Part shown: piece after piece, positions 3,662-63,614 of the stretch | Layout of the letters: each line of letters starts with the position of its first letter | Numbering within the stretch: position 1 is the first letter of the stretch | DNA from: Candidatus Babeliales bacterium | GTDB taxonomy: Bacteria; Babelota; Babeliae; Babelales; JBFXEV01 | DNA: 64,000 nt | NCBI GenBank assembly: GCA_050179755.1 | Contig: JBFXEV010000001.1 | Coordinates: 1,257,994 to 1,321,993 of the forward strand | Direction: 5' to 3' | Made by a program: the position numbers and the translations under genes | Notes under the pieces: generated by a model | What the model was told of the DNA's origin: nothing | Database searches by the model: none | The model's input: only the letters and a program-made list of their open reading frames with translations

Positions 3662-4021
3662 ATGAAAAAAAGACTATTAGTTGCATTAATGGCGTGCATA
3701 GTTGTAAGTTCATCGTATATGCATGGAATGTTAATTCCTGACCCCGATGAAATCAGAAGAGTTGCTGATTTTTATGCAGATAAGCCAGTAGCTTTTTATA
3801 TGATTATGTGCTGTCCTATCTATACAGTTATTGGTCTAAATTTAGTCATAAAAGTTGCTGAAAAAGCGCCTTCTTATCAGCAAGTAAAATCAGCAATTTC
3901 TTCATGCAATTGCTGCAAAAGAATAGAAATAGCTCGCAATGAATTTATTAAAACTCAAGAAAACGGCCTTCTTGCCGCGCTATTCACAAAAGAAGAACTA
4001 ACAAGACAAAAGATGGAATGA
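3662..4021 (+). CDS. Small exported Cys-rich protein with a hydrophobic segment (triplet member 1)
   Basis: Signal peptide ending MHG|M, internal hydrophobic helix, SSCNCCK. Confidence 0.65.
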   Translation: MKKRLLVALMACIVVSSSYMHGMLIPDPDEIRRVADFYADKPVAFYMIMCCPIYTVIGLNLVIKVAEKAPSYQQVKSAISSCNCCKRIEIARNEFIKTQENGLLAALFTKEELTRQKME

Positions 4022-4044
4022 ATGCCGCTAAATTAGGAATCGAA

Positions 4045-4410
4045 ATGAAAAAAACTTTATGTTGCTTACTCATGCTTGTGAGCTTGATCGAAACTACCTC
4101 GCTCGGTATGATGCCACTTAGTCAACAAGAATTAACAGAAATAGCACAAGCATGTGATGCGCATCCTTATGTATGCTATGCATTTTTAGGAGCTCAAGCT
4201 GTGTGTTATACAGTTTTGGCGGGCTTGGCCGTTAAAGATTATTGTTGCCCTCGTATGCCCTCATTTTTATCTTGTTGCACAGGACTAAAAAAAAAAGTTA
4301 CTGGTCTAGTTGCGCAGCAGCAAGCTGTTACCGCTCAAGCACCTTTAAAAAACCCGGGCAAAGAACGATTGTTAGCGCTTGTGGCAGCAAAGCATGAGAA
4401 ATTGCCATGA
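4045..4410 (+). CDS. Small exported Cys-rich protein (triplet member 2); ORF track starts at 4018
   Basis: MKKTL signal ending SLG|M; IAQACDAHP, hydrophobic helix, FLSCC. Confidence 0.65.
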   Translation: MKKTLCCLLMLVSLIETTSLGMMPLSQQELTEIAQACDAHPYVCYAFLGAQAVCYTVLAGLAVKDYCCPRMPSFLSCCTGLKKKVTGLVAQQQAVTAQAPLKNPGKERLLALVAAKHEKLP

Positions 4411-4916
4411 AAAGAATAATAACGAGCATCATAGTAGTGTGTAGCGTAGGTTGCGACTCCCCACTGTATGCCATGCAATATATGGATGCACCAAATATGG
4501 AAACGATCGCTCGTGTGTGCCAAACGCACCCCGACAGTTGTTTTAGAGATATTGTAATACCTCTTGGCATACTCGGAACTTTATTTACTATTATTGAAGC
4601 TAGCGTATATATACATGATCATATGCCTGCTATTCAAGCATGTTGCGTTAAGGCATCTTTTTTTTCTTGTTGTAAAAGCAAAAAGCAAAAGCGGCAAGAA
4701 ATGTATGATGCGCTTTTAGAAAGAATGCCCGCACGTAAAGCACGCAAAGCGTATACATTGCAAGTATTGCAAGAGGAAGTGCCGAATTCAACAAGGCAGC
4801 AACGGCGAACTGCATGTGCGCTATTACAGCAAAAAAAATGGAATCAAGGGGCAGCAATTGCTGCTGCACAGCATAAAGGAGATATTAAAGTTATTGCATT
4901 ACTAAAAAAAATCTAG
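4407..4916 (+). CDS. Small exported Cys-rich protein (triplet member 3)
   Basis: Signal ending LYA|M; IARVCQTHP, hydrophobic helix, FFSCCK; ATGA overlap with the upstream gene. Confidence 0.65.
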   Translation: MKRIITSIIVVCSVGCDSPLYAMQYMDAPNMETIARVCQTHPDSCFRDIVIPLGILGTLFTIIEASVYIHDHMPAIQACCVKASFFSCCKSKKQKRQEMYDALLERMPARKARKAYTLQVLQEEVPNSTRQQRRTACALLQQKKWNQGAAIAAAQHKGDIKVIALLKKI

Positions 4917-4999
4917 CGAATTAAGTAATGATAAGATAATTTGGTAATAATGTTAAATATTATGTAGAATTTCACTCAAACATGTATTATTCATAGTCT

Positions 5000-5395
5000 C
5001 TGGAGCCGCTCTCGCCGCGGCCGGCGCACGCCTTTTTGGTGCCAAAAAGGGTGCAAAAACCAATTAGGGACGCTCCGCTCCCTAAGAACCCTCTCTCCCG
5101 GTGAAGACGCCTATCTCGAATTTCCCTACATGAAATTCTCACTAGACTCCACCGTTTCGTGTAAGATTTTCTTTTTTAATTTTTATAGTTATTACTGTGG
5201 ATGGAAATCAATTGGCCCACAATGTAATTTTATTAGTAGATCCTATGCGCGCTGCGTGCATACCTCGTCGTGAAACGACGCGAGGTATAGCGCTCAGCGA
5301 TCGAGCGGAGTGGTCCAGCAGAATGCTGATGCTTTTTTGCGTCCTTTTTTTGCACAAAAAAAGGCATGCGCCGGCCGCGGCGTGAGCGGCTCCAG
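5000..5395. mobile_element. MITE-like element with ~60-bp imperfect terminal inverted repeats
   Basis: ctggagccgctctcgccgcggccggcgcacgcctttttggtgccaaaaagggtgcaaaaa (5000-5059) is nearly the reverse complement of 5334-5395; GC-rich in an AT-rich background; no clear target-site duplication. Confidence 0.65.
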
Positions 5396-5454
5396 CGATT
5401 AGCAACCTAAACAGTAAAGACTTTTTCTAAACAAATAATAAAAAAGAAACGTTT

Positions 5455-5532
5455 ATTTTTGAGTCTTTTTTTCTGCGTCCGCCGTAGCCTTGGCGAAGGA
5501 GAATGAACAAAAAAAGTCATGCGCCGCCCGCG
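5455..5532. repeat. Degenerate third copy of the MITE end, interrupted by a REP-like unit
   Basis: caaaaaaagtcatgcgccgcccgcg resembles 5355-5379; gtccgccgtagccttggcgaagga sits at 5477-5500. Confidence 0.5.
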
Positions 5533-5764: not shown

Positions 5765-6586
5765 ATGAAGAACGTATCATTTACTGCAAAAGCCGCGGTG
5801 CTATTACTGGCTAGTGGAATACATCTGCATGCAATGAAAGCTCCGCAGGTCACCAGAGAAACCGTACTTGCACAAATAGAACAATTGGCGTTATCTCAAG
5901 GTAACAAAGAAGCTGCGCAATCTTATTTATCTGGTCTTGCCAGCGATATACAAAAAATAGCAACTAGTGCATCAGTTACTGCTCTGCCCACTCAAGCTGC
6001 ACAGTTGCAAGCTAGACTAAAGGAAGGTTCTGAGAGAGTAAGAAAAGCTATAAGAGAATCACGTGGCATGTTAAACCATGCAAAATTAGTTGAATTAGCC
6101 CAAACAGGTAGATTACCCCGTACTGTATCTAAGTCTGATTTTGAAGCCTATATGAAATTATATAGACCATTACCAAAGTTAGTTCTTCCAAAATCAAAGG
6201 AGCTTACAACGTTATTGGCGCAAGCATTAAAACCGATTTACCAAGCAGGCATAAAAACAAATGATATAGATGAGGCTGTGGCTATGCTCACTATGGCCTT
6301 TTATACCGCAATAAAAAATTTGGGGGCGTCAGCAACAACAGAGATGAAAGAAATATTTAATCCACAGGAAATAGCGCAATTGGTCGCGAGTGGTGGAGAA
6401 GAAGCAGTATTGTTAAAAAAATATACAGAAACAGCTGCACCTTATGTTCCTGCCTTACAATCTGCTTTAAAAGCAATTAGTGATGCTGGTAAGCAATATA
6501 AATTTGAAAGCATTTATGATGATGCAAACGCAGAGCTTGGTGATGTGTATCTACAGTGGGGGAACTTAATGCTATCAAAATTTTAA
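5765..6586 (+). CDS. Exported alpha-helical hypothetical protein
   Basis: AAGGA RBS, signal ending LHA|M, 273-aa ORF. Confidence 0.75.
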   Translation: MKNVSFTAKAAVLLLASGIHLHAMKAPQVTRETVLAQIEQLALSQGNKEAAQSYLSGLASDIQKIATSASVTALPTQAAQLQARLKEGSERVRKAIRESRGMLNHAKLVELAQTGRLPRTVSKSDFEAYMKLYRPLPKLVLPKSKELTTLLAQALKPIYQAGIKTNDIDEAVAMLTMAFYTAIKNLGASATTEMKEIFNPQEIAQLVASGGEEAVLLKKYTETAAPYVPALQSALKAISDAGKQYKFESIYDDANAELGDVYLQWGNLMLSKF

Positions 6587-7685: not shown

Positions 7686-8648
7686 ATGTCCATCAAAATA
7701 ATTTATTATATAATGTTCATTATAAGCATGCAATCACACGCAATGGAGCTTATATGTCCTTTGCCAACAAACGCAATGATGCATGCTGTTGCAGAAACTG
7801 TTTTTGCAATGCCACCTTATGATATGTATTACGCAAAACTTACATTGCCACTGAAATCTACTATAACTCTTGGATCTTCCCTGCTTTCTTTAGGTCTTAT
7901 TGGCTCTTTTATTGTTGGTAGCACTACAATGGGGTTTCTTTTGCATGGCAGGCAAAAACTACTTGTTGATGCTGCTATTTTGAATAATCCTTGGTGGGCA
8001 CATATTTTAATAAAAATCGGTGCAAATCCTTATAAGATATTTCAAGATCAAAATCTACAGACAACGCCACTTCATGAAATCGTGAAATGTCATAGTCATG
8101 TTTTATTGCAATTATTTCTTTCAATTTCAGGCGACGTTAATGTACAAGATTCAGATGGTAACACACCCGTTCACCTGGCAGCTATGAATGCCGAAGAAGA
8201 TGCTGCAATTCAAATTCAAGAATTATATGAGCACGGAGCTTGCTTACAAGCTACCGATATTATTGGTCATGCACCTTTACATATTGCAATGCAATATCAT
8301 GCGCACGCAGCTACTGAAAAACTACTGCAATTCGATGTAGACGTAAATGCACAAGATTTTTATGGCAATACCGCACTTCATGATGCCGCAGCGAGTGAAA
8401 ACCTCTACGGCATTATTCGCCTTTTACAATACGGCGCGCATAAAGATATATTAAATAATAGTGGGCTCTCCGCTTGCGATGTTGCCCAACAATATGGCCA
8501 TCAAAGCGTTGTAGATATGCTTGCAGCGCAACGGCGCTGTCTATTGAATCTTGATAATGCACTGCCCCAAAATCCGCAGTTAAAACGTATATCTAGATTT
8601 GGAACAAATATTATGGCAAAGCTTTTTAATAGAGAAATAGGCAAATAA
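7686..8648 (+). CDS. Exported ankyrin-repeat protein with a TM segment
   Basis: TPLH, GNTPVHLA, GHAPLHIA and GNTALHDA repeats; signal ending SHA|M. Confidence 0.88.
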   Translation: MSIKIIYYIMFIISMQSHAMELICPLPTNAMMHAVAETVFAMPPYDMYYAKLTLPLKSTITLGSSLLSLGLIGSFIVGSTTMGFLLHGRQKLLVDAAILNNPWWAHILIKIGANPYKIFQDQNLQTTPLHEIVKCHSHVLLQLFLSISGDVNVQDSDGNTPVHLAAMNAEEDAAIQIQELYEHGACLQATDIIGHAPLHIAMQYHAHAATEKLLQFDVDVNAQDFYGNTALHDAAASENLYGIIRLLQYGAHKDILNNSGLSACDVAQQYGHQSVVDMLAAQRRCLLNLDNALPQNPQLKRISRFGTNIMAKLFNREIGK

Positions 8649-10427: not shown

Positions 10428-11957
10428 ATGAAATTATTTCTATTTTTCCTCTCTACGATTATTTTGTGTACAGGCAACATAGCGCACGCTATGAAACTTG
10501 CAGCAGCTTGCTCGACAATTGACTACAGGGCTCAACAGAAACTTAATGAAGATTTGTGCTATAACGCTAGTCATAACGCTGGGGCACTCTCACAACTCAT
10601 TGAGACTGGTGCTCAAGTAAATGCATATGTTGATGGGCGTACCGCATTGCACTGCGCTGCAGCCTCTGGCTCTCTTGCTATTGGTGCCATGCAGGTGCTT
10701 TTACAAGCAGGGGCAAATCCTTATGCGGTCGATATACATGGCGATTCATCGTTGTGTACTGCCATTGCCTATGGCAACTATGATGGGGTAAGAATGATGC
10801 TAGCATCTGGTTTTAATCCCCATGCTCGTGATGAATCTGGGCACACACCACTTGATTATTTTATGCAGCGTGCACGCGTGAAAAATCTAGAAAACTATAG
10901 TACCGCTGGGGTAGAACGTGAAAATCAAAGGCTCCGCAATCTTACTTTGAGAGCGCTATTGACTACTGTTTCCCCTTATGAGTTACAGCATGTGCCGTTT
11001 ATTATTCTTTGCTTAATGAAGCCCATTACTGTTTCTCTAACAAATGGAGAAGAAAAAGAGCTGCCTGACGAACTCCGGCGGCGCATTGCTCAACTATTAG
11101 TACCAACGATTATTGATGAGAAATTAGCTCTCGCAAAAGAATATCTCCCCGATCTTCCAACCGATAAATTAAGAGCATTACTAACAGTCAGCGCTAGAAA
11201 CGCTTTTAAACGCAAAATGCCTACACTTCCAAAATTACCAGCACAGGATATCATGGTAGTATTAAGTGATGAAGATAAAAAACATATAACAGATTTGCCA
11301 TACTTTGTGTTGTTTCATTATAAAAACCAGATAGTGTTACAGGCATTGCTAAAGGCTGGCGCTGATCCCAATCAAATAACCTTACGCGGCGAAACGGCTC
11401 TATTTTTTGAAGTATCAAAAGGATCATTGTCTTCTCTTGCTACAATAAAAATGTTATTGGATGCAGGTGCCGATGTAAATGCAAGAACAATAGGCGGCAA
11501 TACTGCTTTACACAGAGCAGTTTGGCTTGGCGTTAATCAGTTATGCCCTGCTATTCAATTGTTGATTGAAGCCGGTGGCGATACTACTATTGCAAATGCA
11601 AGCGGAGTAACACCTTCTCAACTTGCCATTAATGCCGCATTGTTGTTAGAAAAAAAAGTCAATGAAAATATAATACGCATATTGATTACAACTGTTTCCC
11701 CTTATGATATAGAAGAGGTAATCCCTCACATAATAGCACTTAGAAAAAATGGTAGATACCCCCTTAATGCAGCTGAAATTATAGCAGATTCATTAATTCC
11801 TCATATTATTGCGCAAAAATTAGAATTAGTGCGTGCCTATCTACCAAACACTCCTCAAGAGTTTATTCGTTTTCGTCCTGAAATACTTGCAAGTATTAAT
11901 CGCCTTATTCGCACATGCCCTGCTATAAAAGCTGCTGAGCGGCAACACAACAATTAA
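10428..11957 (+). CDS. Exported ankyrin protein made of two [ANK + TTVSP helical domain] modules
   Basis: GRTALH, GHTPLD, GETALF and GNTALH repeats; LLTTVSPY and LITTVSPY modules. Confidence 0.88.
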   Translation: MKLFLFFLSTIILCTGNIAHAMKLAAACSTIDYRAQQKLNEDLCYNASHNAGALSQLIETGAQVNAYVDGRTALHCAAASGSLAIGAMQVLLQAGANPYAVDIHGDSSLCTAIAYGNYDGVRMMLASGFNPHARDESGHTPLDYFMQRARVKNLENYSTAGVERENQRLRNLTLRALLTTVSPYELQHVPFIILCLMKPITVSLTNGEEKELPDELRRRIAQLLVPTIIDEKLALAKEYLPDLPTDKLRALLTVSARNAFKRKMPTLPKLPAQDIMVVLSDEDKKHITDLPYFVLFHYKNQIVLQALLKAGADPNQITLRGETALFFEVSKGSLSSLATIKMLLDAGADVNARTIGGNTALHRAVWLGVNQLCPAIQLLIEAGGDTTIANASGVTPSQLAINAALLLEKKVNENIIRILITTVSPYDIEEVIPHIIALRKNGRYPLNAAEIIADSLIPHIIAQKLELVRAYLPNTPQEFIRFRPEILASINRLIRTCPAIKAAERQHNN

Positions 11958-12062: not shown

Positions 12063-14441
12063 GTGATTAAACGACTATTTTTCTTCATCCTTATCTTGTG
12101 TTGCAATGCTGCAGCAATAGCTCAAGAATATGGCGTTGCCATTCCAGTCTCTTTTGATCCTCAAGCACAAGAATGGTCTGTGTTGCTTGGCCTTCAGCAA
12201 GATAATCAATGGTGGCCATTCCGGGAGCAATTGCAGCAAGGAGAAAAAGCAAATGTTGCAGCCCAACGTGCTTTAAATACCAAAACAAATGGTGTCTACA
12301 ATATTTCTATTACTGGAGTGCCATGGGAAAAAATAGGCAACACGTTTTTTCATCTTGTACCAGTAGAATTTATTTCAGGATCAAAGTTATATAACTCAGC
12401 AACCAGTAAAGCAGTTTCTGACTTTGTATGGATCCCCGCAAAACATCTTTTGCAAAAAGGCACAATTAAACCCCATAAAGTGAAAACAAATACAACTGTT
12501 GGTGAAAGCTTTGTAGATGCTTTTAAAATGCTTTGGCCAAAAAAGCAGTATGAACTTTCGGCTACACAACAAGCTGCACCCACCACAAAAGCAGGAACTG
12601 GTACACAAACACCACTTGGTGCCACTACAAAGATAATGGGCAATCAAGGAACTCAATGGGGAGGCAATGCCGATTCCATTTATTTTTATGTAAAAGATGC
12701 ACCATATTATGAATTTACCAATTTCTATGAACAAGATATAAAAATTGATGGCAAAGTTTGGCCCACAAGTGAGCAATATTACCAAGCAATGAAATTCACG
12801 GATAATAATTTGCAGGAAAAGATACGCCAATTTAAATCTGATGCTGCAGGTTCTGGCCCGCGTAAAGCTTTTGATTTTGCTCAAAAAAATAAATCGTCTG
12901 TTCGTGCAGATTGGCAACAAATAAGCCTTGATACTATGAGAAAAGCCGTACGAGAAAAATTTACACAACACAAAGGCTTGGCCAATCTTTTACTCTCTAC
13001 TGGCACTAAAACTCTTGTGGAAGCTGCAGGCGGCAATGATGACTTTTATGGTGCTGGTGCTGATTATAATGGCAAAAATTGGTTAGGTCGCATTCTTATG
13101 GAAGTGCGCGATGAGTTGCGACAAAAGAAAATTCCATCGCCTGCTGCAGTGGCAGTAGCCGCACATAAACTACAAACACCTTCAAGTGTATTACTTTCTC
13201 AAGCGCTTAAAAATCTAGAAACAAAACTTATAGATCTTCAAGATTCATTGCACGGTGCTCAAAAAAAAAGTAGTCTAACAAGCTCTCTTGAAGAACAGCG
13301 AGAAGTATTTAATCCGTTTATGCATGTAACAGGTATTTCTGAAAGTTCTTTTAAAAAATTAAGTGAAAACCAAAAGCACGCACTTAAAAAAGGAAATGCC
13401 TTCTTAAATCAGCAGACAAACGCAGTCTGGAATATGGGCACTGTTGATATTGCTTCTGTTGAGACATTACGTAAAACAAAAAAAGATGGCAAGGGTAGCG
13501 TATTTAATGTAATTGAAGGTGTGGATACGCCATGGAATCACTGGTTTAGAGAATATGTTGATGTTACTGCACTACAAGCAGATCCCTCCAATAAAGATGC
13601 TGTGTTTCAAGTAGCTTCAAATTTTAATGGCCTTGAAGGTTCTGGTGCTCCACATGAAGGTATTATGCCTTATTTAAACCCAAATCTGTATGTGCAAGGA
13701 GAGGCGGCAGCAATTTCTGCAATGCCTGGCATTATCTATCGCATGTATTATATGCCACATCAAGTAAATGGTAAGATATACCAAGGGCAACTACAAGAGC
13801 AACTCAATTTGCTTGAGCAGTTTACTAGTGGGCAGCATAAAATTCCTGTGCATGATGGCTATATTGGCAAAGTGCCAGACATAGAGGCATTTGCAAAATT
13901 ATCCGACATAGAATTAAAGCAGCTTGCAGGTAACGTACATATAGCATTCCACCAAGATATTCAAGTTTCTAGTGGCCTGGGACCACTTAAAAATGAATTG
14001 CCAACTTATAAAGCAATAAAAGTTAGCAATCCAAGTCAACGCATTAATCAAATATTTGCAGCAGCAATGAACCCGTATCAACACAATGTAAATTCTGCAG
14101 GATTTAAAAATCTTGCACAGATGCTTTTGTATGCAGCGTACGAAGGCGGCTTAAAAAGTGCATATGCACACGGTAAAAAGAAAGTATTTTTAACTTTAAT
14201 TGGTGGCGGCGTATTTAAGAATGACCTTTCATGGATCACGCAAGCAATTGAAGAGGCGGTCAAACCATTTTTAACGTATGGTAATATGGAAATTAATCTT
14301 ATTGTGTATTATAGTGGCGATTATAAGAACAAAGATTTAGCTGCATGGAATAATTTTGAAGCTAAAATGGCAGCGCTTGTGCAAAAAAGCGGTGGAGAGT
14401 ATGTGCAGTATAAGGCTGATGGAAAGCATATTAAAAAATAA
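12063..14441 (+). CDS. Exported multidomain protein: degenerate Nudix-like + NADAR (YbiA-like) + macro/PARG-like domain
   Basis: NADAR motifs FTNFY, WPTSEQYYQAMKF, EKFTQH, GKNWLGRILMEVR; C-terminal FQVASNFNGLE...QG and LTLIGGGVF; signal peptide. Confidence 0.8.
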   Translation: MIKRLFFFILILCCNAAAIAQEYGVAIPVSFDPQAQEWSVLLGLQQDNQWWPFREQLQQGEKANVAAQRALNTKTNGVYNISITGVPWEKIGNTFFHLVPVEFISGSKLYNSATSKAVSDFVWIPAKHLLQKGTIKPHKVKTNTTVGESFVDAFKMLWPKKQYELSATQQAAPTTKAGTGTQTPLGATTKIMGNQGTQWGGNADSIYFYVKDAPYYEFTNFYEQDIKIDGKVWPTSEQYYQAMKFTDNNLQEKIRQFKSDAAGSGPRKAFDFAQKNKSSVRADWQQISLDTMRKAVREKFTQHKGLANLLLSTGTKTLVEAAGGNDDFYGAGADYNGKNWLGRILMEVRDELRQKKIPSPAAVAVAAHKLQTPSSVLLSQALKNLETKLIDLQDSLHGAQKKSSLTSSLEEQREVFNPFMHVTGISESSFKKLSENQKHALKKGNAFLNQQTNAVWNMGTVDIASVETLRKTKKDGKGSVFNVIEGVDTPWNHWFREYVDVTALQADPSNKDAVFQVASNFNGLEGSGAPHEGIMPYLNPNLYVQGEAAAISAMPGIIYRMYYMPHQVNGKIYQGQLQEQLNLLEQFTSGQHKIPVHDGYIGKVPDIEAFAKLSDIELKQLAGNVHIAFHQDIQVSSGLGPLKNELPTYKAIKVSNPSQRINQIFAAAMNPYQHNVNSAGFKNLAQMLLYAAYEGGLKSAYAHGKKKVFLTLIGGGVFKNDLSWITQAIEEAVKPFLTYGNMEINLIVYYSGDYKNKDLAAWNNFEAKMAALVQKSGGEYVQYKADGKHIKK

Positions 14442-15487: not shown

Positions 15488-16333
15488 TTAAATGCTTGAT
15501 CTAATTTCCTTATCAGCTGAGGATACATTAATTTCTATTGCGTCCTTTAGTTTTTCGGGATCAGATACATAATGCAACGCCATGGCTACTATATCTGTTG
15601 CAAGTAAATTTGTCCATTGATCAAAGCTTTTCACTTCAGCACGCTTTTTTGAGTTTTCTGTAACCCACACTGTTTGCCTGCCAGCGGCCAAGTCTAATTC
15701 AATGAGCTGCGCTAAAGCAACTTTTCCGTGAATATTTTTTTGAACATTATGAAATTGCAACATAATATCAGAGCGTGTACCTTTGCGCGGCAAGGTAGGG
15801 TCATAACAGACACTAATAATTTTATTAAATGCCCAGCCATCAGCATGTTCGCCTAAATCCCAACGCAAAAGAAGCTGCTTTGCGGCACGCTGATATATAA
15901 AATAAGTTCCTTTAGCTGCTACAAAGGTATGTAACTCTTCATCTACATTGGCCAGATCTTCTAATGCAGGAATTGCATCCCCGCGTATTTTATCAAACAT
16001 AAGGCTACGAAATACCTCAAATATTGTGCACAGTTCTTTGCGAGCTTCTTCCGTATATACGTCAAGCAAGGTAGAAGCTACCGAGCGCGCAACCGATGGT
16101 GGTATGTGTTTTTGCTCCTGAGCCTGCCCATGCGCGTCAATTAAATTATCAGGAAGTAACACAAAAACCTCTTTATGTACTACACGCGGCCTAACAGTTT
16201 GTTCCAAAGGAATAGTAATAGATAATTTTGAAAACCTTGCTTCTGGGACAAGCGCGCTTGTTTTTTGCTGCATGCCAAAACTTGGATTAATCACAGCAAG
16301 CAGAGCAACAAAATATAGTGATAGTAATTTCAT
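15488..16333 (-). CDS. Exported hypothetical protein
   Basis: Signal ending SFG|M; 281-aa ORF. Confidence 0.7.
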   Translation of the reverse strand: MKLLSLYFVALLAVINPSFGMQQKTSALVPEARFSKLSITIPLEQTVRPRVVHKEVFVLLPDNLIDAHGQAQEQKHIPPSVARSVASTLLDVYTEEARKELCTIFEVFRSLMFDKIRGDAIPALEDLANVDEELHTFVAAKGTYFIYQRAAKQLLLRWDLGEHADGWAFNKIISVCYDPTLPRKGTRSDIMLQFHNVQKNIHGKVALAQLIELDLAAGRQTVWVTENSKKRAEVKSFDQWTNLLATDIVAMALHYVSDPEKLKDAIEINVSSADKEIRSSI

Positions 16334-17052: not shown

Positions 17053-17883
17053 TTATTGTGGTTTTTTTTGAGAAGCGTACAAAATTTTTCGCACATCACG
17101 TTCAATGAGGTTTTGAAAATTCATTTCAAATAAATCAACGGAAAGCAATGGTATGATACGGCCAAGTTTTTCTTTAGTTTCTTGATCACACACTTTTAGT
17201 TTATCCGTGCGTAAGCACAAAACATCAAGTTGAAATTTTACTACCTCACCGGGCGTAAAACCTTTTTTATTTCTTAATTGAAGTAGTTTTTTGCCCTCCA
17301 TTATACGCCAATTGGTTATTAACCTAACAGCTTCTTCAAAGTCATCTGTTCCTTGCAGCCTATAATCAATATGATGGCGAGCTTTAACAAGTATAATTTT
17401 TACTAAATTTTCAAAACCAGATTCGGCTGCACTATGTAATGGGGTATTAAGAGATATAGCGGCAGGAAAAACCACTGATGCATCATGCTCCAAAAGCTGT
17501 ATTACAATATTGGGAGCGTACTCACTGCTGATTATCGCAGAATGTAGTGGAGTAGCAGATCCATGTGTAGTTGATGCGTTCACATTCGCACCTCGAGCCA
17601 ATAATAAGGCAACAACTTCATGTTTACCTGCTCCTGCTGCATAATGCAAAAAAGTTTCACCGGCAGCATTGCATCCATTAACCGGAATTGGCTTGCTTAT
17701 AATGCCACCAGCTAACTTACTTGCTACAAAGCTATCCCAGCCTTTGCGAATAAATATTGCGACCGATTCAAATTCTTTATCACTGAGCACCATTGGTTCT
17801 TTTGATACATCCATGGCATAAAGTAGTGAGCAGCACAAGATAGTAATAAGAATTATAATAGGGGAACGCATAAGACCTCTCAT
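17053..17883 (-). CDS. Exported ankyrin-repeat protein
   Basis: GETFLHYAA, ATPLHSA, NTPLHSAA; signal ending LYA|M. Confidence 0.85.
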   Translation of the reverse strand: MRGLMRSPIIILITILCCSLLYAMDVSKEPMVLSDKEFESVAIFIRKGWDSFVASKLAGGIISKPIPVNGCNAAGETFLHYAAGAGKHEVVALLLARGANVNASTTHGSATPLHSAIISSEYAPNIVIQLLEHDASVVFPAAISLNTPLHSAAESGFENLVKIILVKARHHIDYRLQGTDDFEEAVRLITNWRIMEGKKLLQLRNKKGFTPGEVVKFQLDVLCLRTDKLKVCDQETKEKLGRIIPLLSVDLFEMNFQNLIERDVRKILYASQKKPQ

Positions 17884-28444: not shown

Positions 28445-28590
28445 AGTAAGCTCCTTTGCACTAAGCATCTAAATTCCATCTTAGTTGTAGCATAGGAATA
28501 TATCTGTTGAAAAGAGATGCCGCAATATTGCGTTTACCTGGCTTTTATACTACACTTTTTGCAAGTTCGTTTATTGCACAACAGGATTTT

Positions 28591-36604: not shown

Positions 36605-36614
36605 TTGGGAAAAT

Positions 36615-47260: not shown

Positions 47261-48646
47261 TTATTTTGCTCCCTGGCTCTTGAGAAAATCTTCTAATGAC
47301 TTTTGTTTATTGTAGCGAGCTTTGAATAAGGGCGTTTCCTTATTAACATTGGGTGCATTTACCGTAGCTCCTGCCTTAAGCAATAATTCAGCAGCGCGTA
47401 AACAACCGTAATAAGCAGCCTCGTGCAATGGCATGTTGCCATATGCGTCGGGTTGATTGATTGTTTTGGTTTTTTCATTAATAAAGATAGCTACCAACTG
47501 TGTTAAATCACAATTACCTGCAGCTATGTGCAAGGGCGTTTTCTTTTCTTTAATTAACTTTTGCTCAAGTTGTGGCAATATTTCTTTTTCAATAATGGTG
47601 AATATGCCTGTTTGGTTAGCAAACTTAGTTGCATTATCATCAAGGCCAATGCGCTGCATTAATTCATTTTTCAACTGCATAAATATAGCAAGCTGTTCAG
47701 ATTTATCATATGTACGAATAAAGCCAAATATAAAGCTTGTAAGCGCTACGGCATACCAGCGCTTCAGCAGCTCTTTGTTGCCTTGAAAGAAATCTGGGTT
47801 ACCTCGTTCCATTATGCGAGGTGATAACACAAAGAGTTTAGACAAGTCCTCACTGATACTTCTTGGTTCTTCAAGACTTCTTGCAAAGCCTTCATTATCG
47901 ATCAGGGTAACTAAGCGAGATTTTGGATCATAAAAAATGTTACCTGCATGCAAATCTTTATGAATAACTGTTTTATTCAGAGCACCATATTGCTTATAGA
48001 ATCTGGCCATTGCTGCACCAAGATCATAATACGCCTGGCTTGCAAGATCCATTGCTGCTTGACTAGATTGGCTTTTAACTTGTTCCATTACCGATTGTAA
48101 TGAATTACCTTTTGCTTTTGACATGAGAACTAAGTAATGATCTCTTTTGCCATCATTGTATTTTAAATACGTTCGCGCCAGTATTAAACTTAAATTATTC
48201 TTTTTCTCTGGATGAATGTACGGCTCTAGCCTAAGTGAATTATATGCGCGCTCAAGACGCGCAATTTCTTCTTTTGGCTTCATGGTATATTTAATTTCTT
48301 TCAAAATATACTGATTGCCATTTTCACTTGTAACCATGAAAAGTTGTTCATTTGCCCAGTGGGCAGTTTTAGCTACGTCAAGCATTGAGCGAGCTTTGGC
48401 TATTTTTTTTAAGCTTTCAGGAGCTTCACCTTTTTGGGCTGCATGTTCCAAAAAAAGTTTTACAGAACGGCTGTTACCTTCTTTATCGTCAACTTTAAAA
48501 TGCCCAGTTTCTTTAGCAAACTGTATTTTGTCTGATGGCTCAATAGTATATATGGGTCGTTTTAGCGGCTTGGGGCTTTGCGGAGCCATTGCAAGCACGG
48601 ATGGAATAAATAGACCTATTAATAACAACTTGCTATATGTATTCAC
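47261..48646 (-). CDS. Exported protein-kinase-like protein with C-terminal ankyrin repeats
   Basis: GGAG RBS + GTG start; signal ending VLA|M; YILKE, IHKDLHAGNI, LIDNE; TPLHIAA, MPLHEAA, ETPLF. Confidence 0.85.
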   Translation of the reverse strand: MNTYSKLLLIGLFIPSVLAMAPQSPKPLKRPIYTIEPSDKIQFAKETGHFKVDDKEGNSRSVKLFLEHAAQKGEAPESLKKIAKARSMLDVAKTAHWANEQLFMVTSENGNQYILKEIKYTMKPKEEIARLERAYNSLRLEPYIHPEKKNNLSLILARTYLKYNDGKRDHYLVLMSKAKGNSLQSVMEQVKSQSSQAAMDLASQAYYDLGAAMARFYKQYGALNKTVIHKDLHAGNIFYDPKSRLVTLIDNEGFARSLEEPRSISEDLSKLFVLSPRIMERGNPDFFQGNKELLKRWYAVALTSFIFGFIRTYDKSEQLAIFMQLKNELMQRIGLDDNATKFANQTGIFTIIEKEILPQLEQKLIKEKKTPLHIAAGNCDLTQLVAIFINEKTKTINQPDAYGNMPLHEAAYYGCLRAAELLLKAGATVNAPNVNKETPLFKARYNKQKSLEDFLKSQGAK

Positions 48647-48956
48647 GGAATCTCCATTTTCTGCTTCATACCAAATTCTGGTAAAAATCACTTCTACTCA
48701 TAATAAAGCATAACAATTTTAAGCAGCAAAACGCCATAGTTAACCCTATTGACGCTGAAGATTCAGAAGAATAAAAGCATTTTACGTGAAACTTGCACAA
48801 CTTAATCAGCGTTTGTTCGATCTGCAAAATGTACAAGAAGATTTGCAGAATATACACATAAGAATTCTTTCTTTATTGTACTGCCAGTAATCAATGTTAA
48901 TAATGGCACAGAAGTTTCAAAAGAGTAATTTTATGGGGACCACAGGGTCCACTTTT

Positions 48957-51793: not shown

Positions 51794-52897
51794 TTACCGA
51801 GCATCAGATTCTTGAACGTCGGCTAACCCTACGTCCTTTGCCTCTTCTTTCACGCCTTTTTGTAATCCTAAAGTTTTGTTCCAAACCCTATTAAAACTTT
51901 GACGTAACAACTTTATCCCCGCTTCTAATTGCTGCTCTGTTATTTGCGGATTATATAGTTTGGCCCGCGCCACTTTGCCTGTTACTAATTGTTTAAACAA
52001 TTCCTGTATAATAAGCCTTCCCACATCTTTGCTTTGACCAGTATGTTTTCTTTGTGCAAAAACTCTGATTGAGGGGAAAATATGCTGAATCTCTTTAGGT
52101 GTCACAGTAAAAATAAGCGCATTAAATCTATCTGGCTTTTCTTGAATTATAGGATATTGTAGAGCAGTTTTACCATCATCCCTCGCAGCATTTACATCAG
52201 CACCAGCTTCAATAAGCTTTTGGATATGCGGAATATAGCCACCATCAAGTGCATTAAATAGAGGAGTTCTGCCTCCTTCAATAAATCCGCTCCGCTGGGT
52301 TGTCGCATCAACATCTGCTCCGGCGCTTAAAAGAACATCCATTGGATCTAGATCATTCCATTCTCCACGATAATCCTTTTCGGGATTAAAATTTGCAGCA
52401 AAGTGAAGTGCGGTAGCACCATATGTATTGGGAGTTTCTGTCTTGGCACCGTTATCTAAAAGCATTTTTACCATTGTTCCTTTTCCCAAACTTGCCGCTT
52501 CCTGCAAAGGCGTTTTATCCATGCTCGATCTTGCTTCTAACTGATAGCCACCCTCTTGCAATACTTGAGCCAGCGTTTCTGCAGTACCTTCCCTAATAGC
52601 ATTAAGTAAACGTTGATTGTACGCAAACTGCAAAGGAGTTTGACCAAACTCATTAGGTTTACTTGCATCAACTCCCTGCGACATAAGTTTTTTTACCGTA
52701 TCCACATCTCCCTCAAAACTTGCAAATCTTAAATCGGTTAAATCATTCTGTTCGCGCTGTCGCTCGGCGCGCTGCTCAGCAGCAGATTTTGACATAGATC
52801 GCAACCACGTAGTGAACCGCTCCATCGCAAAAGCCGTAAAAATGCCAGTGTTTGCTAGTAATAATGCCAGCCCTAATTTCTGGATATACGATTGCAT
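51794..52897 (-). CDS. Exported ankyrin protein with a TVTP helical domain
   Basis: Multiple GxTPL/TAL repeats; LIFTVTPKEIQHIFP; signal ending AFA|M. Confidence 0.87.
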   Translation of the reverse strand: MQSYIQKLGLALLLANTGIFTAFAMERFTTWLRSMSKSAAEQRAERQREQNDLTDLRFASFEGDVDTVKKLMSQGVDASKPNEFGQTPLQFAYNQRLLNAIREGTAETLAQVLQEGGYQLEARSSMDKTPLQEAASLGKGTMVKMLLDNGAKTETPNTYGATALHFAANFNPEKDYRGEWNDLDPMDVLLSAGADVDATTQRSGFIEGGRTPLFNALDGGYIPHIQKLIEAGADVNAARDDGKTALQYPIIQEKPDRFNALIFTVTPKEIQHIFPSIRVFAQRKHTGQSKDVGRLIIQELFKQLVTGKVARAKLYNPQITEQQLEAGIKLLRQSFNRVWNKTLGLQKGVKEEAKDVGLADVQESDAR

Positions 52898-53128: not shown

Positions 53129-55528
53129 CTATTGTGGTTGCGCAAAAGATCCTTCAAGCGCCGCTTGTACGCGCTGCATCAATTCAATAAACGGTGCACT
53201 CTGCACATCAATGCCTTGAGCTTTGCGCACAAAATCAGTTAAATAATTAATAACACCTGCTGCATTACGCTCATTGATTAAATTAGTAAGCGGAGCAAGA
53301 CTTTCATAAATACCCATAGATGAAGAACCACGGCGCGTTGCACTGAGTTGTTCTGAATAATAACCCGCTTTTGCAACTCCTAAAAGCTGCTCATTCGTTT
53401 CAACATCAAGAAGCACAGGAGCAAGCGATAGATCAAGTAGCGCCCTTCCAGCCTCACTTGAACTTGCTGCCGTCGCTTTTAAAGCACTCACCGTTTTTGC
53501 GGCTGAACCTTTGGGTGAATAATATTTCATTGGACTAGTAACCGCATTGAGTGACTCAATAAGCATCGCAAGATTCTGCTTCACTTTATCAGGATCCTCT
53601 TTAATAAGCTGATACCGTGCTGCAAAATAGTCAAAAATCCGTAACAAAATACCATACGGTTTTATAAGCTCATACATTGATTCAACAGTTATGCCATTAT
53701 CAATAAGAGACTTTTTATTTTTTACTGCCCTATTAATGGCCAAATACACATCGCGTGGTGTACGATACAAACTACCCAAAACTTGTACTAATTGATCATG
53801 TAATACTGGCATTGATTCTGATGCAACTAAGATACGCTCCTTAAATTGCGTTGGCACTTTTCGCGCATCAACAACGATCGCAATAACTTGTTTATCTTGC
53901 GCATCTGATTCAACTAAATCTCTCAGCCGATTTAACAAATCTTGCGGCATGTTTGGTGCAAGCTCTGTAAGTCCACTTACAATCTTGGCAGCATCAAGAG
54001 ACGATTTTGCAAGCTCTGTTTGTAAACCTTGGAGCACCGATGATTCGCGCTCACCCAATTGCCCTTGATATACATTAGTAACAGATTTTAAAAGAGTTTG
54101 TAATTGCGTTAGCGATGCTACTTTTTGTAATCTATCTCGCACAAAATCAGGCAAGCTCATAGTGATGACCGGCTTAGTATTTGCAAGCTGCCATGTAAGT
54201 GCAGATTTAAGTGAATCATTATGTATCTCATTTTCAAAAAGTGTTAAATCAAATATGTGGCGCGCTGCATTACGTTTTATTTCTACTGCACCGGTTGCAG
54301 GTTGCGTTACAAATTCACGAGGATTAAAAAGGAATACAAGTAATGGTGATATTTTCTTGCCTTTTTGCACGCCACGTTGCGTGGTGCCCTCTAAGCCTTT
54401 CCATAACATATCACCAAAGAGTATAAATGCAGGCTGTATACGCAAAAAGTTAAGTGATCGCGCAAGTGCATTTAAGGCATTCTCAGGTGCAAGCGTGGCC
54501 GCTTTATCTTTAGTGAATTGATCCCATACTGCAAGGAATGCCGCATCAGAGGATTGCTGCGCTGCTTCAGTTACGTTCTCTGATCCTTTAACAGCCGGCG
54601 CTTGTCGCTGAGCCACAATGCTTGAAACCACCAATAACTCTATATCACGGACTGAAAGCCTTTGCGGCGCAAACAAACAAGCTGCAAGAGGCGTTATAAT
54701 AGTCTTAAAAAGCGCATCAGGCCGCAATATCATTCCCGTAAACGTTTCATAGAGTTCTTGCAAACGTGCATTTGCATTTGCCTTATCAACTGAAAAGTCC
54801 TTTTGAAGCAGTGCAAAAAGACCCGTTTTTTCCTGCATAAGCGCATCAAGCTCTGCACGCTTTAAAAATTGTTCCTTATTACGCAAATCTTTTAATGCTT
54901 TACCAACTATTTCTTTAAAACGGTTGCTATTAAGATATTCTGTTGTTGCAAGATCTTTAAGCATTTCTAAAAATACTGCATCTGATCGATTTTTCTCATC
55001 ATCCGTTTTTTGCGCAAGTTGCTCTGGAGTAAGTACTGGCAATACGGGAGCTGCAACGGGTTTTGGTTTTGTGCCGATAAACGCAGGCGGCAAACCGGGC
55101 GCCGGTGGCGGCGCAATCGGAGCAGCTGACGGAGTTGGAGGCGCTGGAATATCGCTTGGCTCAGTCGGCTCAATTGGCTCAGTTGGTTCTGACGCAGGAC
55201 TTGTTACCGATGAAGGAGTGCCAGGTTGTGCAGTTTTTGGTTGCTCAAAAATTTGTGCTAAGCGTGCACGTTTTTCATCATCAGAAAGAATTTGGAATGC
55301 TGCACGCTCATCGGGCGTTAAACTAGCCAAAAATTGTGCCATTAATTGTTTAATAGGATCTTTTACTTTTGGCGGCTTTGGAGCAGCCGCTGGCTTGCCA
55401 GCCAAATTATTTTCTAAAGTCTGTAAGTTTCTTACTAAAGACTCAAGCCGATCTTTTAACCTATCTTGCATCATGCCAAGGCTAGCTGATACCCAAAAAA
55501 AAAGACTTACTAGTACATAGTGCTTTAT
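53129..55528 (-). CDS. Large Pro-rich exported hypothetical protein; probable ATA start (ORF track starts at 55474)
   Basis: AAGGAG then in-frame ATA-KHYVLVSLFFWVSASLG|MM; EPxEP and polyproline segments. Confidence 0.75.
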   Translation of the reverse strand: MKHYVLVSLFFWVSASLGMMQDRLKDRLESLVRNLQTLENNLAGKPAAAPKPPKVKDPIKQLMAQFLASLTPDERAAFQILSDDEKRARLAQIFEQPKTAQPGTPSSVTSPASEPTEPIEPTEPSDIPAPPTPSAAPIAPPPAPGLPPAFIGTKPKPVAAPVLPVLTPEQLAQKTDDEKNRSDAVFLEMLKDLATTEYLNSNRFKEIVGKALKDLRNKEQFLKRAELDALMQEKTGLFALLQKDFSVDKANANARLQELYETFTGMILRPDALFKTIITPLAACLFAPQRLSVRDIELLVVSSIVAQRQAPAVKGSENVTEAAQQSSDAAFLAVWDQFTKDKAATLAPENALNALARSLNFLRIQPAFILFGDMLWKGLEGTTQRGVQKGKKISPLLVFLFNPREFVTQPATGAVEIKRNAARHIFDLTLFENEIHNDSLKSALTWQLANTKPVITMSLPDFVRDRLQKVASLTQLQTLLKSVTNVYQGQLGERESSVLQGLQTELAKSSLDAAKIVSGLTELAPNMPQDLLNRLRDLVESDAQDKQVIAIVVDARKVPTQFKERILVASESMPVLHDQLVQVLGSLYRTPRDVYLAINRAVKNKKSLIDNGITVESMYELIKPYGILLRIFDYFAARYQLIKEDPDKVKQNLAMLIESLNAVTSPMKYYSPKGSAAKTVSALKATAASSSEAGRALLDLSLAPVLLDVETNEQLLGVAKAGYYSEQLSATRRGSSSMGIYESLAPLTNLINERNAAGVINYLTDFVRKAQGIDVQSAPFIELMQRVQAALEGSFAQPQ

Positions 55529-55682
55529 GTTTTCTCCTTAAAAATTTATTTCTAGTTTAAGTATAGACACCTGGAAGTTCGAAAGACAATAATCAATATA
55601 TATATGCCTAAAACAGAAGCTCGACTAAAAGTTTCAAGGCATTATCACGTGGCCGCTTACTCCGTCTACGTGTATCCGCGCA

Positions 55683-57955: not shown

Positions 57956-57956
57956 T

Positions 57957-60860: not shown

Positions 60861-61059
60861 AATAAATTCCTTTCTTTAATAAACTTACTATTACTTAGAC
60901 TATTGTTAGTATATACATAACCGAGGAACCAATGTCAACAAATTGCCCTTCGCAGGTAGCGCCCATAAAATTGATTTATACGAGCGTAAAATATTGCTTC
61001 ATCATCACCCCTTATGCAAAACTAAAGATAAGAACTACATTTAAGCATAGGAGGTTATC

Positions 61060-61878
61060 ATGCAAACAAAAAATTATTTTTTTCTTTTCACCCTATTCTC
61101 TTTTATAATCCAAACAAACACCGCACAACCACAAAAAAAAGCAATCGTCATTGGTGCAACTTCAGGCATTGGCAAAGCCATTGCGCAAGAACTAGTTAAA
61201 AATAATTATATTGTGGGAGTAACTGGCAGACGAGTAGGCTTACTTGAAGAACTCAAACAGACTTCCCCAGATCAGATTATTATACAAGAAATGGATGTGG
61301 AGCAAGTTGACCTCGCGCGCATGCAACTTAGTAATCTTATTACTCAATTAGGCACGGTAAACGTGTTTGTATTCAACAGCGCAACATGGCCAAAAGGCCC
61401 ACAAGATTTAACCGAAGATAAAGAAATTAATTGGAATTGTTTGCAACGAATGATGGATGTAAATGTTGCAGGTTTTGTAGGGCTTACTGAAACGATCTTA
61501 GATCAATTTAGAAAACAAGGGTATGGGCATTTGGTTGGCATTTCATCTGTTGATGCGATCCGCGGTTGTGCGGCAATCCCAATATACTGTGCATGCAAAA
61601 GCTTTATGTCTATATACCTTGAAGGATTGCGCAATAAATTTATTCAAACAAATACGCCGATTAATGTCACTGAAATTAGACCAGGTTGGGTGCAAACATC
61701 ATTTGAAATGGGGCCAGAAGCATACTGGGTTTCTACGCCAGAAGTTATTGCACCGCAAATTGTTGAATCAATTCATAATAATGAAAAAGTTGCGTATGTT
61801 ACGCGGCGTTGGAAATTAATTGGTTGGTTGCTGACTATTTGCCCTGATTGGATTTATAATAAAATGGGTGGGTTTTAG
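61060..61878 (+). CDS. Short-chain dehydrogenase/reductase with a signal-like N-terminus
   Basis: GATSGIG, ISS, YCACK, PGWV. Confidence 0.9.
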   Translation: MQTKNYFFLFTLFSFIIQTNTAQPQKKAIVIGATSGIGKAIAQELVKNNYIVGVTGRRVGLLEELKQTSPDQIIIQEMDVEQVDLARMQLSNLITQLGTVNVFVFNSATWPKGPQDLTEDKEINWNCLQRMMDVNVAGFVGLTETILDQFRKQGYGHLVGISSVDAIRGCAAIPIYCACKSFMSIYLEGLRNKFIQTNTPINVTEIRPGWVQTSFEMGPEAYWVSTPEVIAPQIVESIHNNEKVAYVTRRWKLIGWLLTICPDWIYNKMGGF

Positions 61879-62570
61879 CTAAAACTTAGTTCCTCTATTG
61901 GCCTGGCAATGATCTGCAGCCATGTTTCATCACAAGAAAGAAACAAAATCTCATATCCTTGTTTTACCAATAAGGCCCTAATTTTTTCTTCATTCCAATA
62001 ACAATAATATCTTGGCAAACCCACTTTTTCAGTCGACCATTCTTCCCCTTCTCCATATTTTACAGAAAAAGATAAAATGCCATTACGTTTAAGACTTTGA
62101 TGTATTTTTGCAAGTACTTCAGCCATTTCACTAGGCTGAAAGTGTAAAAATACAGCATTAGCAAAAATTAAATCATATGTTTCATCAAATTGGTCTGTGA
62201 GAATATTAAATAAGCGCGCGGAATATCCATTTTTACATAACAAATCAACAAATCCTTGAGTAGCATCAGTGCGATCTACCATAAATCCAAATGATTCTAG
62301 ATAGTTGGCATCACGCCCAAAGGCTGACCCAATTTCAAGAATAGCTGCTCCAGGTCTCAAAAAACTCACCGTTGTATCCATCCAATCTTTAAAACAACCA
62401 GTTACTTAATTAGTAGTTCCGTTCTGATACTCATCAACGCGAGATTCGTATGATTGCAAAGTAATATTATTATTTGACACAGATTGATCCATCTCGTTCT
62501 CATAAGATTTCGCTGTTAAAAAAATAATCATTAACAAAGACGTTAAATATCTAAAATCTATTTTCATCAT
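61875..62570 (-). pseudogene. Class I SAM-dependent methyltransferase interrupted by an in-frame TAA at 62406-62408
   Basis: The upstream frame MMKIDFRY...TLQSYESRVDEYQNGTTN*VTGCFKDW continues into ILEIGSAFGRD...IFANAVFLH. Confidence 0.75.
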
Positions 62571-62849
62571 TCTAACTCTGTCTATGCATATCTAATGACG
62601 TGATTAACTATAAATACTAAAATTATTCCACTAAAGAACAAACTTGTCTAGTTATTTCTCTATAGTTAATAATACATTCTCATGGAAATGACTCGAGCTA
62701 CCATTGCGCAGTGCGTATTAAAAAAATTTGGAAAAGAAGCAAAAAAAAAGAGTCACTATCAAAATTGATAATGACTCTTATATCTATAACACTTGGAGTT
62801 GCAAATAATCTAGTCTCAGAGCACGAATATTACGGGGCAACGAATCAGT

Positions 62850-63614
62850 CTATGGTTTGTTTCTCACAGTTATCTTCATATGCTGATAATGACTTGTCGA
62901 ATCAGCTCCATGTTCTTTTAAGTATTGCGCAATGCGCCATTGTGAATTCATAACAGCCAAGTCATTTGGCGTTATTTCAACACCCGCAATAAACGTTTTA
63001 GCATTAACATCATTCTTATATTTTTCAATTAATAACTTAACCACATGCTCAGCACCATAAAAGACTGCAGATGACAATAAGGAAAATTGTCCTTGCTTCA
63101 TAGAGATAGGACCAGTTTTTGCGCCATGTTTAAGTAAAAAATCAGTCGCTTCCACATTATCAAACGCTATAGCCTGATATAAGGGTGCTTGGCCATTTGC
63201 ATTGAGTTTATTTACATCAAAACCTTCATCAATAAGTAGCTGTAAAAAAGGTACTTTATTATTAAGTGCAGCAATATCCATGACATTTGCACCAGATTGA
63301 TTTACTTGATTTCTATCAACACCTTTTTTAAGCAATAATTTTCCCGTGTTTACAGCACCTCTATCCGCCGCAATAAATAATGCATTTGTAAGGTGAGGAT
63401 CAAATTTCATTTTGAGTAATCCAGGGTATTCATCAAGCACTTTTGCTAACTTATCTGCATTGTCTTGATCGATTGCTTGAACCATTCGATCAATAATCTC
63501 TTTACTAATCGTTTCGCTTTTTTTACTAGGCTGCGCAGGCTTTTCCATTGCAAGAACGCTGCCGGTCTCAATTAATAGTATGCTAGCTAAAGCTAATATA
63601 TATTTTTTATTCAT
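62850..63614 (-). CDS. Exported ankyrin-repeat protein
   Basis: Several ANK repeats (NALFIAA, GQAPLYQA); signal ending VLA|M. Confidence 0.88.
   Translation of the reverse strand: MNKKYILALASILLIETGSVLAMEKPAQPSKKSETISKEIIDRMVQAIDQDNADKLAKVLDEYPGLLKMKFDPHLTNALFIAADRGAVNTGKLLLKKGVDRNQVNQSGANVMDIAALNNKVPFLQLLIDEGFDVNKLNANGQAPLYQAIAFDNVEATDFLLKHGAKTGPISMKQGQFSLLSSAVFYGAEHVVKLLIEKYKNDVNAKTFIAGVEITPNDLAVMNSQWRIAQYLKEHGADSTSHYQHMKITVRNKP

Follow-up and report, generated by a model that had tools for sequence, protein, structure and literature searches.

Dependentiae are widespread parasites of protists, and how their ankyrin and other eukaryote-like proteins reach the host and survive in it is the question raised by a 64,000-nucleotide stretch of Candidatus Babeliales bacterium, hereafter the window (positions 1257994-1321993 on the single 1,525,295-base contig of a genome labelled G000). 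The first-pass annotation had listed 26 exported proteins of the window in which the signal peptide ends in a small residue followed directly by methionine (Met), the predicted first residue (+1) of the mature chain. Here we describe how far this pattern extends, which proteins carry it and what it may be for, and we give roughly even odds, a probability of about 0.5, to a class-selective Met+1 rule in which signal peptidase exposes a selected N-terminal code whose function is read after cleavage.

Methionine after the signal peptide

The window contains 57 translated open reading frames (ORFs) of 80 residues or more. Of the 26 genes that had been listed, 25 show, as claimed, a canonical start, a signal peptide and Ala, Gly or Cys followed by Met. 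The chain begins with Lys or Arg after the start, continues through an uncharged hydrophobic core and a short polar stretch to Ala, Gly or Cys, and then reaches the Met. Five of the listed positions (4045, 28591, 35279, 36615 and 39521) are in-frame ATGs within longer ORFs. For the remaining gene, listed at 53129-55474 on the minus strand, the junction SLG-MM (the hyphen marks the predicted cut here and below) is in frame as described, but there is no upstream ATG, GTG or TTG, and a signal peptide needs an ATA start. The count of Glu, Asp or Gln at +2 in 14 of the 26 is correct (8 Glu, 2 Asp and 4 Gln), and Met is absent from all six exported proteins named as exceptions, at 254, 1926, 12063, 14480, 44474 and 61060.

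Across the whole 1.525 Mb, 1410 non-overlapping ORFs were called and screened for a signal-like N-terminus by a heuristic classifier, which looks in the first ~25 residues for an n-region with positive charge and a hydrophobic core free of charges. As an enrichment control, a residue following Ala, Gly, Ser, Cys or Thr no more than 13 residues from the core was counted for each of the 20 residues in turn. A small residue followed by Met occurs in 299 of the 869 signal-like N-termini, which is 17.1 times the background frequency of Met, compared with a median ratio of 3.3 for the other 19 residues; none of the 14 non-Met residues printed has a ratio above 4.6. With 3.3 as the null, about 57 Met sites are expected against the 299 observed (binomial P = 3.9e-129). 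The position of the Met is narrowly set: in 228 proteins the Met that comes first beyond the best hydrophobic window lies at offsets 4-8, versus ~6 per position further on. The pattern is confirmed as real and reaches far beyond the window, in which the same classifier finds a Met site in 24 of 43 signal-like ORFs.

The proteins with such a site, hereafter the Met class, number 303, and the class accounts for about one protein in six of the genome. They fall into 203 BLAST clusters (E below 1e-5), of which 183 are singletons; ankyrin proteins make up 46 of the 77 members of the largest. Their genes are spread genome-wide with moderate clustering (116 adjacent pairs versus 64.8 +/- 6.5 after shuffling). 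A foreign base composition was considered and rejected, the guanine-plus-cytosine fraction of the class being 0.395 versus 0.391-0.394 in the others.

Cleavage sites are predicted from sequence throughout, and the predicted junction fits the (-3,-1) rule of signal peptidase I, which calls for a small residue at -1 and a small or aliphatic one at -3. When 294 proteins are aligned on a Met at offsets 2-10 with -1 left unconstrained, -1 is Ala, Gly, Ser, Cys or Thr in 219 (A116 G37 S28 C21 T17), and seven residues fill -3 in 239 (L57 A55 V33 T29 S27 I23 C15). The junction is nevertheless unusual, with Leu in 22% and Ile in 9% at -3, where both are rarer in Escherichia coli signal peptides, Tyr or Phe at -2 in 27%, and Ala at -1 in just 52%. 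Signal peptides of the class have a mean length of 20.5 +/- 2.9 residues and a mean of 1.4 Lys or Arg in residues 2-8 (n = 282), and Lys directly follows the initiator Met in 33% of precursors. A predictor blind to +1 agrees with the junction first proposed: although it is crude, relies on simple -3/-1 weights and often picks an earlier site, it puts Met at +1 more often than any other residue (40 of 188 calls), and Met lies within -4 to +6 in 38 of its 148 non-Met calls.

Other processing sites do not account for the junction. Gln is not enriched at +1 in the genome (ratio 3.5 versus the median of 3.3). A lipobox with Cys at +1 is not what the class carries, its +1 residue being Met and Cys standing at -1 in 11%; single lipobox-like false positives such as LVTAC-M occur in the classifier output. 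Type IV prepilins have a short charged leader, cut after Gly and before Phe or Met, followed by a hydrophobic segment with Glu at +5; in the Met class the hydrophobic segment precedes the cut, and +5 is Pro, Lys, Ala, Ser or Asp with no Glu peak.

The residue after the Met is biased as well. The commonest +2 residues in the 294 aligned proteins are Asp, Glu, Gln and Lys (D66 E53 Q33 K22), and in the Met class +2 is Asp, Glu, Asn or Gln in 166 of 263 (63%) and small in 30 of 263 (11%), with 10% of predicted mature N-termini being Met-hydrophobic. After the true initiator Met of signal-less ORFs, by comparison, Asp, Glu, Asn or Gln makes up 21% and small residues 36%.

Proteins and lineages that carry the methionine

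Two families with eukaryote-like domains are prominent in the Met class. The claim that every ankyrin protein follows the rule holds in the window (13 of 13) but not genome-wide, where the classifier places 51 of 80 ankyrin ORFs in the class (~55 on inspection by eye); a signal-like N-terminus of another kind is seen in 18, and 11 lack one altogether. A tandem array of ten ankyrin genes without signal peptide (G000:C1:1396453-1408234) is unlike the other ankyrin genes of the genome. In the second family, about 20 paralogues join Skp1_POZ to WD40 repeats behind a signal peptide (L177:2567-4141; L163:3832-12712, corresponding to G000 403832-412712). The family looks like a mimic of SCF ubiquitin-ligase parts and has full-length homologues in other genomes (P0002, P0003 and others); 16 of 20 members are in the Met class.

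No Pfam family matches 121 of the 145 stringent members that remain. The 24 with a match include three TPR, three LRR and three weak ankyrin proteins, a Macro domain, a PLD-like protein, an exo/endo-phosphatase, DUF6624, an OmpH match and about seven membrane or Rossmann-fold false positives of the classifier, which also misses some true cases. An earlier sample of 36 members, 24 of them without family, gave the same picture. The exported proteins without Met, by comparison, include BamA, Pal, a DegP-like protease, M23 and M16 peptidases, SpoIID/LytB, thioredoxins and FKBP, as well as ABC binding proteins, DUF885, Big_9 surface proteins and exported enzymes.

Homologues (E below 1e-8, coverage of 60% or more) were sought in 22 relatives, from which 1.1 Mb had been sampled. 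They exist for 12 of the 303 ORFs in the Met class, most of these 12 being classifier errors, for 82 of 566 with another signal-like N-terminus and for 101 of 541 that lack a signal. Because so few of its members have homologues in relatives, the Met class is shown to be the fast-evolving, eukaryote-like part of the secretome, and the conserved envelope proteins are unmarked. The first-pass annotation had asked whether effector-like and periplasmic proteins differ in this respect, and they do: by Pfam and NCBIfam scans and homologue counts, the Met is linked to effector-like proteins and absent from ordinary exported ones, and conserved periplasmic proteins have no Met enrichment.

For the wider distribution, 40 genomes were drawn from the phylum, all of one order and, being kin, not independent, with samples of 40-220 kb per genome. 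The pattern is seen again in most of the Babeliales lineages sampled and is weak or missing in the rest. Enrichment is strong in lineages f1, f2, f3, f8, f9 and f11. Expressed as the ratio for Met versus the median ratio of all other residues, the values are 12.0 versus 2.9 in G001 (f2); 17.2 versus 2.7, 8.1 versus 3.8 and 9.0 versus 2.5 in G005, G027 and G018 (all f3); 10.2 versus 3.1 in G019 (f8); 13.8 versus 3.7 in G038 (f9); and 12.2 versus 3.1 in G039 (f11). Values in the remaining lineages are 5.6 versus 3.3 in G007 (f4), 6.2 versus 3.1 in G008 (f5) and 5.9 versus 3.8 in G040 (f6). For f7, a first sample of G017 gave 1.4 versus 2.7 and a second 10.8 versus 2.6, the latter from only six sites, few of them typical, and G010 gave 0 of 16 for Met, with a median of 1.9 for the others. 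Thirteen further Dependentiae contigs around recA gave 12.5 versus 2.9. In other phyla the enrichment is absent: 67 of their recA loci, with 298 signal-like ORFs in 1.02 Mb, give a ratio of 4.0 versus 3.6.

An ankyrin array of G040 (f6), at L143-L145 (G040:C1:50000-87000), encodes near-identical signal peptides ending in ...S[V/M]YA-AQ[D/E], with no Met at +1. The code is not universal in the phylum, because this sampled sister lineage has signal-bearing ankyrin proteins without the Met.

Possible function of the exposed methionine and rival explanations

Comparisons among related proteins separate the Met from its surroundings. Paralogue pairs with a signal on both members and at least one of them in the Met class (E below 1e-10) share the Met in 140 cases and do not in 102. 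Where both members have the Met and are no more than 60% identical (133 pairs), identity amounts to 6-20% across +2 to +9 and to 46% at -1, figures that depend on how the class is defined. When the Skp1/WD40 protein at L177:2567-4141 was searched against a database, 120 matches were listed, from which 14 were taken (13 covering at least 88% and one 65%); the other 105 matches, WD40-only, were left out. All 14 homologues have the Met, which in 12 follows a signal peptide ending in Gly, Cys, Ala or Ser and in two, P0023 and P0092, is exactly where the protein begins; +2 (Glu, Asp, Thr or His) and -1 vary among them. Taken at the level of sequence, these comparisons show a Met that appears to be held by selection.

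Under the class-selective Met+1 rule that we favour, each protein would be synthesized from its upstream start and carry an ordinary signal peptide of the Sec type. Around the cut there would be Leu, Ala, Val or Ile at -3, often Tyr or Phe at -2, and Ala, Gly, Ser or Cys at -1, and signal peptidase I would cut directly before the Met, leaving a mature chain that starts with Met-Asp, Met-Glu, Met-Gln or Met-Asn. As to origin, the Met was probably the start codon of proteins that formerly had no signal and on which a signal peptide was then grafted. The exposed N-terminus would then be read. As reader, the host cell is possible and is judged the likelier; a sorting step within the bacterium, by which Met-first proteins would leave the periplasm, is judged less likely. 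Eukaryotic N-termini are subject to the methionine aminopeptidase (MetAP) rule, to acetylation of Met-Asp, Met-Glu, Met-Asn and Met-Gln by N-terminal acetyltransferase B (NatB), and to degrons of the Met-hydrophobic type. Within the host, an N-terminal Met that is kept and has an acidic or amide residue next to it would resemble a native eukaryotic N-terminus, would be a NatB-type substrate, and would evade Met removal and N-degron recognition. The host-side reading is favoured because the +2 spectrum fits MetAP retention, the NatB type and avoidance of Met-hydrophobic degrons. More tentatively, signal peptidase may be used to make a native-looking eukaryotic N-terminus on hundreds of effectors, read by host machinery or by a bacterial receptor.

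The alternative that survives best, which we regard as unlikely, is that the Met is a historical scar and has no reader. Signals would have been added before old start codons, with cleavage tuned to the native N-terminus, and the Met would persist by inheritance and mild constraint, many of the recipients being eukaryote-like. A scar of a signal cassette fused to acquired genes had been raised by the first-pass annotation, and as an account of origin, which the favoured rule shares, it finds some support. An origin as the start codon of signal-less proteins is suggested by the Skp1_POZ profile, position 1 of which lies one residue after the Met in L177:2567-4141, and by the two homologues that begin at the Met. 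Gain of a signal by N-terminal extension is also common in the genome. Glyceraldehyde-3-phosphate dehydrogenase (GAPDH), three thioredoxin reductases, adenosine deaminase and SurE, normally cytoplasmic, carry signal-like extensions with ordinary junctions (outside the window, at G000:C1:988472-989593, 666206-667669, 1191062-1192516, 1504374-1505453, 1071795-1072766 and 1073165-1074136), which suggests export of metabolic enzymes or two starts.

As a neutral relic, the scar fares worse. The Met stays while positions +2 to +9 of paralogues are randomized and -1 and +2 vary in the 14 homologues. No relic of a Shine-Dalgarno (SD) motif is seen, an SD-like motif (GGAG, GAGG, AGGA or AAGG, 4-18 bases upstream) preceding 4 of 154 junction Mets, and the +2 spectrum (Asp, Glu, Asn or Gln in 63% versus 21%) is unlike that of true starts. 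In GAPDH and the three thioredoxin reductases the Met at which the relatives start is kept 11-25 residues past the predicted cut, so grafting alone does not set the cut at the Met. The Skp1/WD40 paralogues, finally, have a linker between Met and domain that is ~8 and ~30 residues in two of them and ranges from ~0 to ~31, with the Met at the junction throughout. Two related ideas were set aside. A signal cassette shared at the sequence level is not apparent, the signal peptides being diverse as judged by eye; and signal-less paralogues in G000 that start at the Met were discarded, the non-ankyrin partners in several pairs being misclassified Met-class members (three proteins).

Less probable still is an effect of cleavage context, in which signal peptidase I would cut weak sites better with Met at P1' and the residue would have no later role. 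Features of weak sites are indeed present in the Met class, namely the bulky -3, the aromatic -2 and the low share of Ala at -1 described above. But the conserved exported proteins of the same cell have ordinary A-x-A sites without Met, the signal peptidase copy number does not track the rule, and the idea leaves unexplained both the link to protein class and the strong +2 bias.

We consider it very improbable that the Met is a second translation start, from which a cytoplasmic isoform would be made beside the exported one, as the first-pass annotation had offered among its options. The junction Met is always ATG by definition, and two database homologues are called from it. However, SD-like motifs precede 115 of 154 annotated starts of Met-class genes, and they are rarer before junction Mets than before random internal Mets (95 of 1277). 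The base profile 5' of the junction ATG has no promoter-like box, and ankyrin or Skp1/WD40 proteins would have no evident role inside the bacterium. An internal start is unlikely because the SD-like motif, the base profile and the +2 spectrum all speak against it; translation is from the upstream annotated start. An artefact of ORF calling, paralogy or the heuristic classifier can be set aside almost entirely, since, crude as the classifier is (~7 false positives in 145 scanned, and some true cases missed), the identical procedure finds no enrichment in 1.02 Mb of other phyla or for the other 19 residues, the Met class contains 183 singleton clusters, and public gene calls of the homologues take in the signal peptide.

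Several observations weigh against a selected code. There are the 18 ankyrin ORFs with a signal-like N-terminus and no Met, and the Met class has housekeeping-type members (an S41 peptidase, a thioredoxin and an M15 peptidase). Proteins without a family are also frequent among the non-Met exported ones (22 of 45 by Pfam, 66 of 97 by NCBIfam). Samples of f4, f5, f6 and f7 have little or no enrichment, and, judging from the sequences of the f6 array, the Met is evidently not needed for ankyrin export everywhere. Early acidic residues are generally common in mature Sec substrates, a tendency that may account for some of the +2 bias. A start-codon origin, which needs no reader, agrees with both the Skp1 alignment and the two homologues beginning at the Met. 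No reader of the exposed N-terminus was found, peptidase and secretin copy numbers being uncorrelated with the rule.

The machinery candidates that were tried and rejected include a specialized second signal peptidase I, since signal peptidase I genes number two in G000, one in G001 (with the rule) and two in G007 (with a weak rule); secretins number 2-3 in the five genomes tested (two in G000), with no correlation with the rule. Exported GNAT acetyltransferases were dropped as evidence for an N-terminal modifier, their overlap with rule-bearing genomes being loose. One is AAC(6')-like and turned up in 12 of the 41 genomes searched, although matches to its GNAT half were confined to f1, f3 and f11; a second exported GNAT was found in only 5 of 41. 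In the first of these (G000:C1:589744-591090) the GNAT, behind a signal peptide, is fused to a second domain that occurs in tandem arrays in f2 genomes.

Known N-terminal systems resemble the Met+1 rule in part. The apicomplexan PEXEL/TEXEL signals mark host-sent proteins on which proteolysis unmasks an N-terminus with Glu, Gln or Asp as second residue; the new N-terminus, not the signal peptide, licenses a later step, and the cut is made by an aspartic protease in the eukaryotic endoplasmic reticulum at a site with an upstream R-x-L. Here too a cut would unmask an N-terminus with Glu, Gln or Asp in second place, but at a bacterial signal peptidase site and with Met fixed as the first residue. 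In the lipoprotein +2 rule and the Bacteroidetes lipoprotein export signal, the residues after Cys+1 of signal peptidase II substrates set the compartment. The proposed bacterial step would likewise let the first mature residues decide the compartment, whereas Met-class proteins have no lipobox, save for a few classifier false positives. By eukaryotic N-terminal rules, 63% of the class would be of the NatB type, 11% would lose Met under MetAP and 10% would be Met-hydrophobic, although the MetAP, NatB and N-degron rules act mainly on nascent host proteins. We know of no modifying enzyme for Met+1 proteins.

A bacterial precedent is the Bacteroidetes Q-rule. There, signal peptidase I substrates expose a Gln at +1 that glutaminyl cyclase cyclizes to pyroglutamate, and the rule, according to the parts of the sources consulted, covers most such substrates, periplasmic ones included (PMC5837995, PMC10653852). 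In both cases a great many proteins have a lineage-specific residue just past the signal peptidase I site, which gives a new N-terminus. They differ in that the residue here is Met, not Gln, and in that conserved envelope proteins are skipped. In the available parts of the literature on Dependentiae, the recognized export routes are only Sec and a type II-like system (PMC6561590, PMC4378268). Signal peptides are given for 44% of coding sequences and 78% of ankyrin proteins in Chromulinavorax (PMC6561590) and for 79 of 126 ankyrin proteins in Babela, where type II is the sole secretion system detected (PMC4378268). The word 'methionine' is absent from the available texts of both papers, whose supplementary tables, outside the search, might list cleavage sites. 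The available text of the Q-rule paper PMC5837995 contains no 'methionine', 'TM6' or 'Dependentiae', and that of PMC4776705 has 0 occurrences of 'signal peptide'. More broadly, the Met+1 pattern was not mentioned in the literature searched, supplementary tables again lying outside it.

A conserved Met at +1 would be a simple mark by which, in one genome, some 240-300 effector-like proteins could be told from the ordinary envelope proteome, and it would make the question of delivery or stability testable. It would add to the Q-rule a second, class-selective case of a lineage-fixed residue at signal peptidase I sites. If the proposed reading is true, this effector repertoire would be the first described in bacteria to have its sorting or stability coded by the N-terminal residue, and a one-line predictor of effectors in Dependentiae would follow. 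Babeliales families that bear the rule and those in which it is weak or absent offer natural contrasts for finding the machinery.

Genes of the window

By translated N-terminus and Pfam, 13 of the 26 listed genes encode ankyrin repeats, and most of the others have no family. The ankyrin proteins on the plus strand are at 7686..8648 (SHA-ME), 10428..11957 (AHA-MK), 33367..34641 (LQA-ME), 36615..37628 (LHA-ME; the ATG lies inside ORF 36573-37628, and the classifier missed the gene) and 40795..42081 (ITC-MQ), and weak ankyrin matches are found at 29874..31076 (SYA-MV), 32496..33386 (LLA-ME) and 34739..35269 (LYA-ME). On the minus strand, ankyrin proteins are encoded at 17053..17883 (LYA-MD), 42145..42918 (VTA-MA), 51794..52897 (AFA-ME) and 62850..63614 (VLA-ME), and at 47261..48691 (VLA-MA) the ankyrin protein has an additional weak protein-kinase match (E = 3e-4).

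Family-less proteins with the Met begin, on the plus strand, with two small ones at 3662..4021 (MHG-ML) and 4045..4410 (SLG-MM; start 4045 lies inside ORF 4018-4410), followed by 4407..4916 (LYA-MQ). A tyrosine recombinase of the phage integrase family (2716-3651, plus strand) lies immediately 5' of these three small overlapping genes (3662-4916). Further family-less proteins on the same strand are at 5765..6586 (LHA-MK), 28591..29850 (LYG-MQ; the ATG lies inside ORF 28507-29850), 35279..36604 (IYA-ML), 37771..38232 (IFC-MV), 38330..39436 (AHA-ML) and 39521..40639 (LKA-ME), and on the minus strand at 15488..16333 (SFG-MQ), 27719..28468 (LCA-MD) and 44063..44416 (LCA-MV). The minus-strand gene with the non-canonical start would, by an upstream reading, span 53129..55537 and encode a 781-residue family-less protein (SLG-MM); this needs an ATA start after AAGGAG and a five-base spacer, the junction Met at 55474 being the first canonical start.

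Three exported proteins without Met, identified from translated N-termini and Pfam, provide a contrast with ordinary sites: a NADAR-domain protein at 12063..14441 on the plus strand (AIA-QE), a family-less protein at 44474..44884 on the minus strand (IVA-QE) and a short-chain dehydrogenase with a signal peptide at 61060..61878 on the plus strand (NTA-QP). The window also encodes a membrane protein of the Bax-inhibitor-1 family at 6824-7525 on the plus strand.

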